Position numbers and translations under genes: made by a program. From an uncultured virus (IMG/VR IMGVR_UViG_3300020048_000043) (taxonomy: Duplodnaviria > Heunggongvirae > Uroviricota > Caudoviricetes), in IMG/VR virus record IMGVR_UViG_3300020048_000043, positions 1 through 64,000 of that record: a stretch of 64,000 nt of DNA; one strand, 5' to 3'. The notes below the pieces were generated by a model. The model ran no database searches and was not told the DNA's origin. It was given only the letters and a program-made list of their open reading frames with translations. Every line of letters starts with the position of its first letter. Position 1 is the stretch's first letter. Of this stretch, positions 1-58,163 are shown piece after piece.

Positions 1-350
1 TAAGTAATTAGTGTCGAATAAGCTCGTGAATTGCTGGGAACCCCTAAGAGCCTAATGCGCTACAACGTAAGGAGCAATCCTAAACGTGAATGCTGCGAAA
101 GCAGAAAAAAACATTAGGATAGCATATGGTGAAATAAAAGCTCGTTTAACAACGAGTCCTAAGTGCTTTGATAATGGGTAATCAGCAGCCAAGCCGCATA
201 CTGTGCGGAAGGTTCAACGACTATCCCGGAAGGGAGTAGGGCATCCTGGCGACAGGCTCTGTTCGAAGTGCGAGCGCCCTCAATAGAGTAATGCGAGGGA
301 ATGATATAGTCTGTGTTATTTAACAACAGTCGAAAGACAAAGTTGGAACT
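1..350 (+). ncRNA. Group I self-splicing intron catalytic core
   Basis: Conserved elements in order: P AATTGCTGGGAA (~29-40), Q AATCAGCAGCC (~180-190), R GTTCAACGACTA (~212-223), S ATGATATAGTCT (~301-312). Several GNRA-capped hairpins; GC is higher than the flanks. Confidence 0.9.
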
Positions 351-365
351 CTTACATAGTTATAC

Positions 366-394
366 TTGCTTATTTTTATCAAATGTTATATAAT
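366..394 (+). promoter_or_regulatory. Sigma70-type promoter for the intron-encoded tnpB
   Basis: TTGCTT (366-371), 17 bp spacer, TATAAT (389-394); AGGAGG RBS precedes ATG 421. Confidence 0.6.
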
Positions 395-420
395 ATTTGA
401 TAAGAAAGGAGGTGAGTATA

Positions 421-1584
421 ATGAAAGAAATGGTCTCACATACGATTGAGATAAAGATGAATAAGACTATGCGGCGTTATTTAGACATGTGCTTTGGTTA
501 CAACAGATATTGTTGGAATAAGATGTTAGCAGAAAACAATCGACGGCAAGAAGCAAAGGAAAAATATAAATTTGATGATTTGAGTAAGTTTCTTAATGCT
601 ACTAAAGAAGATTGGGAATTTGATATGCCATCTGCTATTCGTGCTACTAGTTTTAATAATTTATATAAATCATTTAAACGAATGTGGAAAGGGATAGCGA
701 ATTACCCTAAATTTAAGAAGAAACATGATCCACAGAAATCTTTTACATATACTGTAGAAGAAAGAACACTTATTTGGAATGATGATTACACTAAATTTAA
801 AATTAATTGTGGAAAAAATTTTAAGACACAACAAAAATACCGTTGGTTCAAATTAACAGAACCAATTGGTTTTAATGGTATTATTAAGCAAGTATGTTTC
901 TTCAAAAAAGCCGATCGATACTTTGCTAATTTTCAGATTCAACTTAACCAAGCACGTGGGCAAACTACAGCTACAGATATTGTGGGAATTGATTTAGGCC
1001 TTAAAACTTACGCTACGTTATCTGACGAAACTACATATAAGCTTCCAAAAAAGAAACTCAAGAATTTGGAAAAACGTGTAGTATTTTATCAGAAAATGAT
1101 GGATCTTAAGTATAAAAAAGGTCAACATCAACAATCACATAAATATTTGAAAACGAAAGCCAAGTTTAATAAGCTGTGGTGGAAAATAACATGTCTCAGG
1201 AAAGATTTTCTTCATCAAACTACCACTGATATTTGTAGGAAGTTCAAAACAATTGTAGTTGAAACTTTACGACCTCTAAACATGATGAAAAATAAGAAGC
1301 TAGCTAAACAAATTCAAGATGCTTGTTGGGGTATGTTTGTAGAAATGTTGCGCTATAAATCAGCATCGCATGGTAACATTTTTATACAAGCAGACAGTTT
1401 TTATCCATCAACACAATTATGTAATTGTTGTGGTCATCGTTTAGAAGGATCTAATAAGTTAAAATTACATGATAGAATCTACAAATGTCCTAAGTGTGGA
1501 AATGAAGAAGATCGAGACACGAACGCTGCCAAAAACCTACAACTTTATGGTAGTCGTATGTTGGCTGGGTTACAGCCATCTTGA
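421..1584 (+). CDS. tnpB: TnpB RNA-guided endonuclease (intron-encoded, possibly IS607-type)
   Basis: RuvC motifs GIDLG, IVVETL and DRDTNAAKNL, with a CNCC...CPKC zinc finger; all catalytic residues present. ATG 421 has an RBS (the track start at 397 does not). Confidence 0.93.
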   Translation: MKEMVSHTIEIKMNKTMRRYLDMCFGYNRYCWNKMLAENNRRQEAKEKYKFDDLSKFLNATKEDWEFDMPSAIRATSFNNLYKSFKRMWKGIANYPKFKKKHDPQKSFTYTVEERTLIWNDDYTKFKINCGKNFKTQQKYRWFKLTEPIGFNGIIKQVCFFKKADRYFANFQIQLNQARGQTTATDIVGIDLGLKTYATLSDETTYKLPKKKLKNLEKRVVFYQKMMDLKYKKGQHQQSHKYLKTKAKFNKLWWKITCLRKDFLHQTTTDICRKFKTIVVETLRPLNMMKNKKLAKQIQDACWGMFVEMLRYKSASHGNIFIQADSFYPSTQLCNCCGHRLEGSNKLKLHDRIYKCPKCGNEEDRDTNAAKNLQLYGSRMLAGLQPS

Positions 1585-1696
1585 AGAACTTGGGAGAACT
1601 CGTAAGACTACAAACTATCGTAGCTAGGTTCGTTTGTACCGAGTTGAATAGACCAATATATGTTTACATACATATATGTAAGAGTTTATATAACAG
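1540..1696 (+). ncRNA. Putative omegaRNA scaffold and intron 3' end (5' boundary approximate)
   Basis: Structured non-coding stretch from the end of tnpB to the predicted 3' splice site. TnpB omegaRNAs are known to lie at element right ends. Confidence 0.6.
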
Positions 1697-2905
1697 GAAT
1701 GTGCGTTCATGCCATTAGAATCACATATGGCTTCTATACTTCCTACAACATCTAGAACATTTTTAAATGCTAAAAAATATAATATACCGTATGGATTAGT
1801 ATTTACATCTACACCTAATGGACGTATTGGTACTGGTGAAGGTTTTTATAATATGGTTATGGATGCGTCTACTAATCCAAATAGTATATATCATTATGTA
1901 TCTATTTATTGGTGGGAATGTCCTGGTTATGATGAAAAATGGTTTGCTGAAAGATGTATGGAAGAACATTGTACTCCGGATGCTCCTAACAGTAAAGTAC
2001 AGCAAGAATATAATTTAATGTTTATAGGTTCTTCTGATAGTATATTTGAACAACAAGTTATGGAACAAATACAAGATCCAAAAAATTCACAAGAACCTTT
2101 AAAAAAAACATCTTATGCGCATGGTTATATCTATTGGTGGGATATGCCTTCAACAAAATTACGTTACGTTGTAGGTGTTGATACTGCTACAGAATATGGA
2201 ACCGATTTTTCTACGATATACGTCGATTGTTTTGAAACTGGGCAGCAAATAGCAGAAGCTAAATTTAAATGCAGTATAAAGCAGTTTTGCCACCAATACC
2301 TGCCCATAATAGTAGATCTATTACCACATAAAGTTTTAGTTATTGAACGTAACGGTGTAGGTAATCAAACCATAGAAGAATTAGTAGAGGTGTATGGAGA
2401 TATTATATTAAAGGATAATAAAGGTGTAGAAGAAAACAGTAGACCTAAATACGGAATACATTCTACTGCACAAACTAGAAATTTAGTAATAGAACAAATA
2501 TTTTCTACTATAGCAAATAATCATAATAATGTTTTATCACATAATTTAAAAATGGAAGCGGCTGGATTAGAACGTAAATCTTCAGGAAGAATTGAAGGAC
2601 AACCAGACGACTTATGTTTTGCTATGGGTTGGGCAAAATACGCATCTATGTATTATGATTTAACACAATATTTTGGTATTAGTCAAAAACAAACATTTGA
2701 TACATTAGCTATAGATGGGCAAGTTATATTAACTGAGTCTGATAATGATAATTCCGTTGTAATAGATACTACAGCATATCAAATGATACATGGTGTAAAT
2801 CCATTTGAACAAGAGGATTTTCAAATATACCAGAGTTTTAAACAGAACAAATTTAGGAAACAAGACCAACAAGATATTTTGGTTCAGATCGAAGATTTAT
2901 TATAA
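1697..2905 (+). CDS. terL: Terminase large subunit, 3' exon
   Basis: ECAF (second half of a DExAF Walker B), TSTPNG coupling motif, QEY, nuclease motifs VGVDTA and IERNGVG, and PDDLCFA. Confidence 0.88.
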   Translation, partial: ECAFMPLESHMASILPTTSRTFLNAKKYNIPYGLVFTSTPNGRIGTGEGFYNMVMDASTNPNSIYHYVSIYWWECPGYDEKWFAERCMEEHCTPDAPNSKVQQEYNLMFIGSSDSIFEQQVMEQIQDPKNSQEPLKKTSYAHGYIYWWDMPSTKLRYVVGVDTATEYGTDFSTIYVDCFETGQQIAEAKFKCSIKQFCHQYLPIIVDLLPHKVLVIERNGVGNQTIEELVEVYGDIILKDNKGVEENSRPKYGIHSTAQTRNLVIEQIFSTIANNHNNVLSHNLKMEAAGLERKSSGRIEGQPDDLCFAMGWAKYASMYYDLTQYFGISQKQTFDTLAIDGQVILTESDNDNSVVIDTTAYQMIHGVNPFEQEDFQIYQSFKQNKFRKQDQQDILVQIEDLL

Positions 2906-5019: not shown

Positions 5020-6705
5020 ATGGCTTTCAATATTTTCCCAGGTGTTTATACTACGATTAGAGATAATTCGTTTTATATTCAACCTTTACCAGGCGCAATA
5101 GGTTTTATTTGTATGTTTACAGAAAAAGGACCAGATAATGTTGTCCGTATGTGTACAGGACCGCAAGATTTAATAGAAACATACGGTCGTGGTAATCCAG
5201 CCAAATACGGACAAGGCTGGTATGTGGCTATGCAGTATTTAGGTATTTTAGGGAATTTGTATATGGTTCGTGTTACACCATCAGATGCAGTTTATTCTAC
5301 ATTATGTTTAAAACATTTATCTGTTGATATTGATAGTGATGGTGTTAATGAAGATACGTTAACAGTTGTTGTTCCACCAGCAACATTTATTACAAAACAA
5401 ATAATGGATACAGCATTAGAAAATAGTTTAGCAGATGTTATTTTTTATACTACAGGTCGTGGAGACTGGTATAATAATTTACATATTAAACTAACACGTG
5501 CTATGGAATATGAAAATACATATATTTTAGATTTATATCAAAATGTCGAAGGAACATCCTTACCTGCTCTTATCGAATCTTATACAGTATCTTTTGATAA
5601 AGAATCAAAAGATATTAGTGGTGAGAGTATGTATATTGAAACTGTTCTTGATAGATATAGTGATATTATTCGTGTAGCAGTGAGTGATGCTGTAACAAAA
5701 GATTGGGTTTGTGATTTTCCATTTACAACATATTTACCATTAACAAATGGTTCTGATGGAACTATGTATGATGTTAATGGTAAAATAAACTGGGTTGTTA
5801 TGCAAAATTCTTTAGCACAAGCATATTCCGGATTAGCTGTCAATCCATTAACAGGTGAACCTGATATTGAAATTTTAGATCCGGATTGTTTAATGTTTAG
5901 TGTTGTATTTGATGCAGGTTATCCAACTGTTGTTAAAGATGCTATTATAGATCTTTGTAATAATAGAACAGATTGTTTTGCCTTTTTGGATAATGGTCAG
6001 GATCCGTTCACCCTTTTTCACCTTTTCCCCNNNNNNNNNNTGGATAATGGTGATAATGCACGAGCAGTTAACGCATTACAAAAAAGATCTAATACACATA
6101 ATTATCAAACATTTAGAGCAGCATTATATGAAATGTATACTAAAGTATATGATACCTTTACAGGTCAATATATTTGGATGACACCTATTTATCACGTAGC
6201 TAGAGCATTCGCTATGACAGAACGTGATTATGATTTGTGGTGGCCATTTGCTGGTCTTAATCGTGGTGTATGTAATGGTATTAAAGATATTAGATATAAA
6301 CTTGTTGGTGGGTTTAGAGATCAATTTAAACTCAATCAATTGAATCCTATCATGAGATGGGCACAAGGCGGAGACACCATTTGGGGTAACTGGACATGCC
6401 AAAGTAGACCAAGCGCATTACAAAATATTCACGTTGTTCTTTGCTTGCTTTATATTAAACGTGTACTTGAATGGAATCTTAAATATTATATTTATGAATT
6501 TAATGATGCATTCACTTGGGCTCTAATCCGTGATACAGTCAGTCAATTCTTAGGTGAAATGAAAACAAGAAGGGCATTAGAATGGTTTACAGTTAATGTA
6601 TTTGCTACGGATTATGATAAAAAAATCAATAGATGCCAAGTTGTTATAGATTTAAGAGTTACTGGTGCTATTGAAACAATTAGCATTACATTAATTGCAC
6701 ATTAA
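5020..6705 (+). CDS. Contractile tail sheath protein (contains an assembly gap and an apparent insert at 5998-6040)
   Basis: N-terminal PGVYT, FDAGYP, WWPFAGLNRG, LNPI, IWGN and YEFND sheath motifs. Confidence 0.9.
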   Translation: MAFNIFPGVYTTIRDNSFYIQPLPGAIGFICMFTEKGPDNVVRMCTGPQDLIETYGRGNPAKYGQGWYVAMQYLGILGNLYMVRVTPSDAVYSTLCLKHLSVDIDSDGVNEDTLTVVVPPATFITKQIMDTALENSLADVIFYTTGRGDWYNNLHIKLTRAMEYENTYILDLYQNVEGTSLPALIESYTVSFDKESKDISGESMYIETVLDRYSDIIRVAVSDAVTKDWVCDFPFTTYLPLTNGSDGTMYDVNGKINWVVMQNSLAQAYSGLAVNPLTGEPDIEILDPDCLMFSVVFDAGYPTVVKDAIIDLCNNRTDCFAFLDNGQDPFTLFHLFPXXXXDNGDNARAVNALQKRSNTHNYQTFRAALYEMYTKVYDTFTGQYIWMTPIYHVARAFAMTERDYDLWWPFAGLNRGVCNGIKDIRYKLVGGFRDQFKLNQLNPIMRWAQGGDTIWGNWTCQSRPSALQNIHVVLCLLYIKRVLEWNLKYYIYEFNDAFTWALIRDTVSQFLGEMKTRRALEWFTVNVFATDYDKKINRCQVVIDLRVTGAIETISITLIAH

Positions 6706-56939: not shown

Positions 56940-58163
56940 GTGGCAGATAAAATCATTCTCAACTACAAATATCTTCTTCGTCCTACAAAGCAGCAAAAAT
57001 CTACACTTTGGAATATCCTCCAATGTTGTAGACATCTATATAACGAAGGACTTGAACTTCGTAACGAATGTTATGAATGCGCGAAAATTGGTTTGAACAA
57101 ATACGATTTAGATGATTATTTCAAAAACCGTTATACGCATGTTCATTCACAAGTGAAACAAAACGTCAACAAACGGCTCGATACTGCGTTTAAGAATTTC
57201 TTCGAAAAACGAAGCAAGTATCCGAAATTTAAATCACGTAATCAGTATCGATCTTTCACATATCCACAAAGTGGTTTTCGTCTTATCAATGATAAACGAG
57301 TTAAACTATCCGGTGTTGGTGAAGTAAAACTTGTGCTTCACAGACCGTTAGTTGGTAAAATTAAAACATGTTCATTAAAACTTTCAAAAACAAATAAGTG
57401 GTATGTGATATTTTCTGTTGAAGTAGCATTAGAAGATTTTTTTAAAACACCCACTTCGCAAAACAAAAATGCCGTTGGTTTAGACATTGGCATTAAAACA
57501 TTTGCTTCACTATCTGACGGCACTCAGATTGAGAACCCAAGATTCTTGCTTAACTCAGAAAAGAAATTGAAACGAGCACAACGGAGGTTGTCTCGCAAGA
57601 AAAAGGGTTCTTGTAATCGTAAGAAACAAATACACAAACTCGCGAAGTTACATGAGCGGGTAGCGAATCAAAGAAGAAACTTTCACTTTCAAACAGCTCA
57701 CTGGCTAGTAAATAATTACGGACTTGTCGCAGTCGAAAACTTATCACCACAATTCATGATCAAGAATCACAAATTAGCAAAACACGCAAGTGATATTGCG
57801 ATTAGTCAATTCTTCAATATCTTGACTTACGAAGCCTACAAACACGGAACACTAGTAGGCCCCGTAAATCCGTATAACACTAGCCAGCTCTGTTCGAAGT
57901 GTAAACAGATTGTCTCAAAAGATTTGTCTGTGCGAACGCATCAGTGTCCCTATTGTGGGTTCACCTACGATAGAGATGTCAATGCGGCAATTAACATTGT
58001 TGATGGGATACCTGACCAGTTTAAGCAGGAATACATTCTTTTGAGAAACGATACGGTCGGAACTACCGAAATCTTAACGCCTGTGAAGACAAGCACCACT
58101 GTTTCTAATTCTTATGGATTAGAAATAAGTGCTGTCGTTGAAGCAGGAAGCCAACTGATTTAG
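56940..58163 (+). CDS. tnpB: TnpB RNA-guided endonuclease
   Basis: YKYLLRPT HTH, GLDIG, VAVENL, CSKC...CPYC, DRDVNAAINI. Confidence 0.95.
   Translation: MADKIILNYKYLLRPTKQQKSTLWNILQCCRHLYNEGLELRNECYECAKIGLNKYDLDDYFKNRYTHVHSQVKQNVNKRLDTAFKNFFEKRSKYPKFKSRNQYRSFTYPQSGFRLINDKRVKLSGVGEVKLVLHRPLVGKIKTCSLKLSKTNKWYVIFSVEVALEDFFKTPTSQNKNAVGLDIGIKTFASLSDGTQIENPRFLLNSEKKLKRAQRRLSRKKKGSCNRKKQIHKLAKLHERVANQRRNFHFQTAHWLVNNYGLVAVENLSPQFMIKNHKLAKHASDIAISQFFNILTYEAYKHGTLVGPVNPYNTSQLCSKCKQIVSKDLSVRTHQCPYCGFTYDRDVNAAINIVDGIPDQFKQEYILLRNDTVGTTEILTPVKTSTTVSNSYGLEISAVVEAGSQLI

Follow-up and report, generated by a model that had tools for sequence, protein, structure and literature searches.

A probable tnpB-only IStron between the Walker B codons of a phage terminase gene

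We examined the first 64,000 nucleotides (nt; this whole stretch is called the window below) of the IMG/VR record IMGVR_UViG_3300020048_000043, which comes from an uncultured virus and is linear, 122,295 bp in length, 29% G+C and 44% complete by the CheckV estimate. The first base of the record falls within a mobile intron, and we consider it likely that window 1–1696 is an IStron of the tnpB-only, IS200/IS605-like ('group A'-like) kind that lies in terL, the terminase large subunit gene of a large phage, and homes by RNA-guided cutting. The left and right ends of an IStron are also its splice sites (PMC4227781; 10.1101/2023.11.20.567912; PMC13565253). Elements of this type, about 1.7 kb in length, were found in five genes: terL and the genes for a major head protein, a DnaB-like helicase, a UvsX-like recombinase and a QueC-like protein.

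Insertion site in terL

The reading frame at 1697–2902 matches the terminase large subunit profile phrog_2 (E 1.3e-11, profile positions 371–605 of 807), and its first codons, GAA TGT GCG TTC ATG, stand in frame directly 3′ of TAACAG (1691–1696), as had been stated in an earlier interpretation of the window from its letters and open reading frames (ORFs), here called the sequence-only reading. The uninterrupted TerL protein P0001 (576 amino acids, aa) is 99.75% identical over residues 175–576 to the product of this frame and reads ...RRPMFVWVD/ECAFMPLE at the junction, the slash marking the position of the element. The segment FVWVDECAF of P0001 aligns opposite MIYIDECAF of gp17 of phage T4 (3EZK, E 1.8e-8), in which we take Asp255-Glu256 to be the Walker B Asp and the catalytic Glu. 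Judged by this alignment, the element sits between the terL codons for these two residues. The sequence-only reading had predicted the junction F-D/E-C-A-F; its Asp/Glu part is borne out by P0001 and by an allele from run X9, and the residue before Asp proved to be Val, not Phe.

Intron-less terL homologues, which the same reading had proposed as targets of TnpB, were found in several sources (P0001, P0028, P0019, P0026, runs X9 and X3, and viral contigs). Four of the 21 runs found (X1, X2, X3 and X9) were compared with the window, all four as contigs; run X2, labelled RNA, is probably DNA. In the contig of run X9, ...TGGGTTGAC / ...CCTATGTTTGTATGGGTTGAC is joined directly to window base 1697, and in that of run X3, ...TGGGTGGACGAG is joined to base 1700, both being intron-less. 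Eight loci in viral contigs, some of them duplicates, carry an uninterrupted terL with GTCGAT, GTTGAT or GTTGAC at the site. The window lineage includes the uninterrupted proteins P0001 and P0028. A sister terL lineage (about 72–81% protein identity) comprises exon 1 products that end in ...FVWVDQ (P0015 and P0018) or ...FVWVDQVRSLY (P0017) before a stop codon, exon 2 products of 398 aa from the first Met (P0003, P0021 and P0024), and uninterrupted forms of 587 aa (P0019 and P0026); the exon 1 and exon 2 products are listed on contigs of matching size (30,867 and 17,970). By these sequences, split and unsplit terL alleles exist at the same codon boundary in two lineages.

Separately, the ending of P0017 suggests that the same Asp/Glu site also hosts another intron variant, whose 5′ end differs. 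No close relative of the window terL was found in the phage collection, where every match was below 60% identity. The exon 1–intron junction and close exon 2 alleles were both searched for in viral contigs and neither was found, and a looser left-end pattern recovered just the two contigs already known.

Copies in other phage genes

Scans of viral and metagenome contigs with sequence patterns and with proteins yielded full copies (Table 1). The alignment with the window stops exactly at base 1696 in all six loci that reach the 3′ end (L003, L005, L007, L009, L010 and L011), and the terminus ACAG is present in 7/7 copies that reach the end, window included. For each split gene, the two halves match adjoining parts of one PHROG profile, and removal of the element restores an open frame in the terL (compared with P0001), head-protein and helicase genes. 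The 5′ flank is TGGAT in all four independent full sites, while the 3′ flanks of the five sites have no common motif. At the level of sequence, the occurrence of copies in unrelated genes is evidence that the element is mobile as one unit.

In the 122-kb record, no homologue was found of the exons from the four other host genes. As for a bacterial host, P0015 and the intron pattern were both without match in prokaryote species genomes (one 22-nt intron pattern, 0 matches in 185,579 species genomes), and the element was seen solely in phage-like contigs. One of the copies, the metagenome contig L009, has a QueC-like exon 1 joined via the IStron to a UvsX-like exon 2, and L008 and L011 hold the matching partners; L009 is either an assembly chimera or the outcome of recombination between element copies.

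Ribozyme and 5′ end of the intron

The group I core noticed by the sequence-only reading at the start of the window was confirmed by a match of RF00028 to the plus strand of window 1–335 (45.6 bits, E 5.9e-10, model positions 34–253 of 253, flagged as cut at the 5′ end). The gathering score of this family is 50; a default Rfam scan of the window is empty, and the match appears under an E-value threshold. A full-length sister copy (L005, 1047–1395) scores 61.9 bits over model positions 1–253 (cut-off 50), and the E-value scan gave no match for three whole sister loci before one of them was trimmed to 441 bases. In blastn, the ribozyme is about 70% identical to introns of Staphylococcus, Brochothrix and Enterocloster phages. 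Taking profile and alignments together, the 5′ part of the element is a Twort-like group I ribozyme.

Compared with four independent full sites, the intron has lost 21–22 nt at the record edge, namely the paired region P1, which contains the internal guide, and the 5′ strand of P2. In these four sites, the intron starts with CAA, two or three loop bases and GGTCCCTTCAC, followed by the counterpart of window base 1; the sequence-only reading had placed the start about 2 nt before the window, which is too close. The complete P2 of the sister copies is CACTAA-GTAA-TTAGTG, and the tail-tube intron of a Staphylococcus phage has CTATACA-GTAA-TGTATAG in the same place, the stem being kept and the letters being different.

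Minimum-free-energy (MFE) folds of the sister copies (5/5) form P1 from the exon GGAU and GUCC, with one extra C-G pair and a loop of 4–5 nt. The last exon base, U, pairs with G at the splice site and has pairs on both sides (GGAU/C...G-GUCC, the slash marking the splice site) in all five. These folds place the true P1 guide upstream of the window. The internal guide GTCGAATA that the sequence-only reading had proposed at 13–20 was rejected: its letters are the last P2 pair and the joining segment J2/3, and they are identical in copies within four other genes, whatever the exon. In addition, TCGAATAA is conserved in the Staphylococcus phage tail-tube intron.

The tnpB gene and its place in the intron

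The closing stem of the intron (Table 1) is short, compositionally balanced and invariant (no covariation), and encloses a loop that holds tnpB. This pairing puts tnpB within the loop formed by the last hairpin of the ribozyme. One contig of run X2 (depth 17.5) has base 354 joined to base 1674, so that 1319 nt are skipped, and in this tnpB-less intron the closing stem is left as a small hairpin with a 5-nt loop.

The TnpB protein has the Pfam domains HTH_OrfB_IS605, OrfB_IS605 and Cas12f1-like_TNB, scores 232 bits on NF040570 (cut-off 100), and scores 226 bits on the IS200/IS605-type model as against 138 bits on the IS607-type model. It aligns over its full length with the ISDra2 TnpB structures 8BF8 and 8EXA (E 3.5e-35). 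The motifs GIDLG, VVETL and DRDTNAA (the RuvC D-E-D triad) and the CxxC pairs CNCC and CPKC (the zinc finger) are all present, so that the sequence-only reading was right in calling the gene intact. From the conserved start, the ORF is 387–394 aa in length in six copies (window included), and the ratio of nonsynonymous to synonymous substitution (dN/dS) is 0.10–0.23 in all 15 pairs among these copies. Purifying selection acts on tnpB. The DRD-x-NAA pattern is matched in five of the six copies, the exception being L009, and the other two motifs are matched in 6/6.

The absence of tnpA, also claimed earlier, holds as well: such a gene would not fit in the element, and PF01797 is without a match across the 122-kb record (44% complete). 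The claim that tnpB has its own promoter was rejected: the hexamers TTGCTT/TATAAT are missing from all five other copies, and the promoter is not among the sites of a consensus scan, which gave 7 promoter-like sites versus 7.4 in shuffles. The ribosome-binding site is kept, GGAGGTG being present in five of six copies (window included) and GGGGGTG in L003. Just 5′ of it, an imperfect inverted repeat, TTATCAAATGTTATATAATATTTGATAA (window 373–406), overlaps the proposed -10 hexamer and is unique to the window copy.

The 3′ end and a candidate omegaRNA

From the last tnpB codons to base 1696, the sequence is near-invariant in six copies, synonymous sites included, and similarity then drops abruptly. 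RNAalifold predicted a terminal stem (1643–1654 with 1682–1694) that surrounds a palindromic hairpin (1656–1679). One pair of the stem, 1649/1688, is compensatory (U-A in two copies and C-G in four). The palindrome has compensatory changes between copies, and the left-end hairpins P1 and P2 are unlike it. No Rfam family matched the predicted omegaRNA region. Published omegaRNAs are described with a pseudoknot and a layout of three stem-loops. The terminal stem and the closing stem of the intron both need letters 1679–1686, and the one therefore excludes the other.

The omegaRNA of published IStrons continues for about 15 nt after the 3′ terminus of the intron (PMC4227781; 10.1101/2023.11.20.567912; PMC13565253), and its guide is the 3′ flank (PMC13565253; 10.1101/2023.11.20.567912). 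By analogy, a guide supplied by exon 2 would fit the exact boundary in 6/6 sister loci, a structured 3′ end that reaches to 2 nt before this boundary, and the published IStrons.

Table 1. Features of the element in the window and its copies in other phage genes
Feature	Position in window	Strand	Basis or remark
Group I ribozyme core, 3′ half of P2 to P9	1–335	+	RF00028 match and blastn
P2 hairpin loop and 3′ strand (TAA-GTAA-TTAGTG)	1–13	+	Alignment and MFE folds of five copies
J2/3 (TCGAATA)	14–20	+	Same letters in copies within four other genes
Closing stem, 5′ strand AACTCTTA	347–354	+	Pairs with TAAGAGTT at 1679–1686; read from the sequence
Segment absent from the tnpB-less intron relative (tnpB and most of the 3′ untranslated region)	355–1673	+	Joint in the X2 contig
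Ribosome-binding site GGAGGTG, 6 nt 5′ of the tnpB ATG	408–414	+	Read from the sequence
tnpB, 387 aa, IS200/IS605-type RNA-guided nuclease by sequence	421–1584	+	Pfam, NCBIfam, PHROG and PDB
Predicted omegaRNA scaffold, several stem-loops	1540–1696	+	Alignments and RNAalifold; assigned by analogy
Element 3′ end TAACAG, with G1696 as terminal G of the intron, marking its 3′ splice site and also the IStron right end	1691–1696	+	Six-locus alignments and the X9 allele
First 20 nt of exon 2, GAATGTGCGTTCATGCCATT, the predicted omegaRNA guide, matching the target in intron-less alleles	1697–1716	+	Predicted from the published IStron rule
terL exon 2, catalytic Glu through nuclease domain, stop codon included	1697–2905	+	phrog_2, P0001 and T4 gp17
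Copy L003, major head protein gene			79.8% identity to window 1–1696
Copy L007, major head protein gene			79.7% identity to window 1–1696
Copy L005 (= L010), DnaB-like helicase gene			81.0% identity to window 1–1696
Copy L009, QueC-like exon 1 and UvsX-like exon 2			82.5% identity to window 1–1696
Copy L011, QueC-like amidotransferase exons 1 and 2			82.5% identity to window 1–1696
Copy L008, UvsX-like recombinase exon 1			90.8% identity over window 1–568, then the contig ends

Proposed mechanism and alternatives

In published IStrons, the left-end motif serves as splice donor, as transposase target and as transposon-associated motif (TAM) of TnpB, and TnpB cuts the empty site, after which recombination restores the element (PMC4227781; 10.1101/2023.11.20.567912; PMC13565253). 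From the anatomy described above, we infer a similar series of RNA steps, a TAM and cleavage for terL. TerL would be made only after splicing, because the first ATG in exon 2 comes later than the ECAF codons, which follow the 3′ splice site. Unspliced transcripts would yield an omegaRNA, with a scaffold of about 1540–1696 and the first 16–20 nt of exon 2 as its guide. Splicing and guide formation would be mutually exclusive, because the terminal stem of the scaffold and the closing stem use the same letters (1679–1686). During co-infection, TnpB with its omegaRNA would recognise a TGGAT-like end of exon 1 together with the adjoining exon 2 match in an intron-less relative and cut there. Repair from the intron-bearing genome would then copy the element in (homing); alternatively, the rival genome would be lost. 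The carrier genome would be spared, because 1.7 kb separates its motif from its target. The sequence-only reading had already proposed TnpB in the role of a homing endonuclease for this intron; its IStron anatomy, its split Walker B motif and its view of intron-less alleles as potential targets stand, and its structural argument for the junction and its promoter do not.

Several points weigh against homing at terL. Residues 1–174 of TerL, and hence exon 1 with its TAM, have no match in the record (the record tail was inspected and tblastn with P0001 was run). The T at position -5 of TGGAT is not accounted for by P1 pairing, and this motif comes from just four sites. It is found in 0/6 distinct intron-less terL alleles, which have GTCGAT, GTTGAT, GTTGAC or GTGGAC; by our own estimate, such an outcome would arise by chance in about half of cases, given AT-rich codon use. 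Synonymous divergence (dS) of tnpB between copies is 0.3–0.9, and the insertions are therefore not recent. The element, which is present in five different genes, is without tnpA. The fold of the 3′ end has as its support one compensatory pair in six closely related sequences. Finally, L009 is a hybrid of two sites, so that assemblies through the repeat can be chimeric, and run X1 (share 0.80) may be the source sample, in which case its contig bridging the element and terL is not independent.

Some of these points (no tnpA, old copies with dS of 0.3–0.9, and TGGAT in none of the six alleles), together with the tnpB-less derivative, whose existence means that decay occurs, would suit a settled IStron that no longer homes. 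The element would then be a vertically inherited self-splicing intron with a TnpB that is idle at terL or otherwise employed, and the intron-less alleles would be older lineages or products of precise loss. We regard this as unlikely, because dN/dS is low in every pair of copies, the nuclease motifs are matched in five of the six (not DRD-x-NAA in L009), and the 3′ scaffold is near-invariant even at the synonymous sites of the last tnpB codons. Moreover, the uninterrupted allele that is 99.75% identical in protein to exon 2 of the window points to recent gain or loss.

The X2 contig, in which exactly 355–1673 is absent from an intron, also allows tnpB and its RNA to be seen as a separate, nested unit, with the intron tail from 1674 as guide, that homes into tnpB-less introns and not into intron-less terL. 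A related Staphylococcus phage intron has a different nuclease ORF 3′ of the core, which makes ORF swapping at this position plausible. This explanation is nevertheless improbable. Full copies have both outer boundaries in common and move as one unit (five sites), and the 3′ stem with the compensatory pair extends to 1694. The nearest characterised TnpB has a TTGAT-type motif, which the TCTTA before 355 does not resemble and from which TGGAT is one letter off. The right end of published IStrons coincides with their 3′ splice site, and loss of the ORF is a known form of their decay (PMC4227781; 10.1101/2023.11.20.567912).

It is scarcely credible that the junction of element and exon 2 was produced by assembly through a repeated element, even though L009 joins exons of two genes through the element and the record starts inside it, since the join falls exactly at the Asp/Glu codon boundary, the sister-lineage proteins P0015, P0017 and P0018 break at the same point, and the X1 contig, possibly from the source sample, spans 1554–2396 without difference over copy-specific letters.

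Beyond the homing IStron that we favour, a wider reading is possible and is offered tentatively: the copies may form a phage-restricted IStron lineage in which TnpB has replaced the protein homing endonuclease of a Twort-like intron and converts or excludes co-infecting intron-less phages. The synonymous variants of the Val and Asp codons would then be escape variants, since intron-less alleles carry GTC, GTT or GTG with GAT or GAC and never GTG-GAT. Letters 1679–1686 would act as a switch that divides transcripts between terL mRNA and guide RNA.

Relation to known IStrons and homing introns

The nearest published family is that of the group A IStrons, CdISt1 / CdiIStron of Clostridioides difficile and its relatives (PMC4227781; 10.1101/2023.11.20.567912). 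As in these, the ribozyme is 5′, a short stem closes the loop that holds an IS605-type tnpB, splice sites and element ends coincide, the left end is directly preceded by a pentanucleotide whose last letter is U, and the 3′ end is NCAG. ORF-less derivatives exist, tnpA is lacking in many copies, and the omegaRNA (predicted here) is in the 3′ region of tnpB and overlaps the 3′ splice site. The published members have IA2 ribozymes, and the ribozyme here matches the group I intron model. The present element differs in its flank, TGGAT, which contains GG and is one letter from TTGAT, instead of TTGAT, ATTAT or TTTAT; in its 3′ end, ACAG instead of TCAG, of which the last three letters agree; and in having no tnpA fragment, dissimilar left and right hairpins, and phage-like contigs as its only setting.

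Group A IStrons and ISDra2 have TTGAT as their TAM (PMC4227781; 10.1101/2023.11.20.567912). ISDra2 TnpB (PDB 8BF8, 8EXA and 8H1J) resembles the present TnpB in its full-length alignment and in its RuvC and zinc-finger motifs, and its TAM is one letter from TGGAT; however, ISDra2 is a plain insertion sequence with tnpA and without an intron.

Group B IStrons are of the IS607 type. Those of the Clostridium botulinum phages c-st and D-1873 (CbISt3 and CbISt4) were listed in 2014 (PMC4227781) and, with CboIStron, resemble the present element in being phage-borne. For CboIStron, experiments have demonstrated that TnpB cuts the empty site and that ribozyme and guide RNA are in conflict (10.1101/2023.11.20.567912), whereas both are predictions here. 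Group B elements also differ in that they insert after sites ending in GG, end in CGG, have a serine TnpA and splice after G.

Among the Twort-like homing introns of Staphylococcus phages, the tail-tube intron of vB_Sau_CG (KY794641.1) has a core about 70% identical over window 3–222 and has in common with the element the GUAA loop of P2, the letters of J2/3, a nuclease ORF 3′ of the core and a position in a phage core gene. Its passenger is annotated as a protein-only intron-encoded nuclease, in contrast to the module of TnpB and guide RNA predicted here.

TnpB in the role of a homing endonuclease has already been published for IStrons in general (10.1101/2023.11.20.567912; PMC13565253), and a 2026 review states that IStrons without tnpA could propagate by intron homing (PMC13565253). 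Among the papers listed by full-text searches, whose coverage takes in few subscription journals, none has a title or abstract on an IStron in a terminase gene or on this TGGAT family.

Other observations in the record

A second tnpB, free-standing, is present at window 56940–58163 on the plus strand (407 aa; NF040570, 305 bits); its product is about 30% identical to the IStron TnpB, and no group I core was detected next to it. A third, partial TnpB-like match lies beyond the window on the minus strand (G000:C1:77364-77897). Also beyond the window, group I intron matches were found on the minus strand of locus L014 (G000:C1:101959-105163) at 102681–102874 (40.4 bits) and 103459–103663 (24.3 bits). 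They lie where a large ORF ends in ...GYNAD and the next begins with MFDGDQM, with a 260-aa ORF between. We take the large ORF to be RNA-polymerase-like and the NADFDGD-type motif to be catalytic, and the motif appears to be split at this place.

Runs of 10 N each are present at window 6031–6040, within a 561-aa ORF (5020–6705), and at G000:C1:67752-67761 and G000:C1:110761-110770. In the tail of the record (G000:C1:about 120000-122295, beyond the window), a minus-strand gene pair and its upstream region were seen by eye in two near-identical copies about 1.7 kb apart. The record terminates within the second of these, in keeping with a break of the assembly at a repeat.

Significance

IStrons and their logic are already published; what is new here is the presence of the element in four sister genes, after TGGAT and with the end ACAG, the purifying selection on tnpB, the split and uninterrupted terL alleles of two lineages, and the tnpB-less form. 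The locus, where a large phage of lytic type carries a tnpB-only element within an essential late gene, is a natural setting for the prediction of homing. Near-identical intron-bearing and intron-less alleles circulate, and four sister insertions define the candidate motif. If TnpB is inactive, the element simply adds to the self-splicing introns of phage core genes. There could also be practical interest in a compact TnpB of the ISDra2 kind that has a new motif. If TnpB is active, RNA-guided nucleases would join the protein homing endonucleases in gene conversion and in competition between phages.

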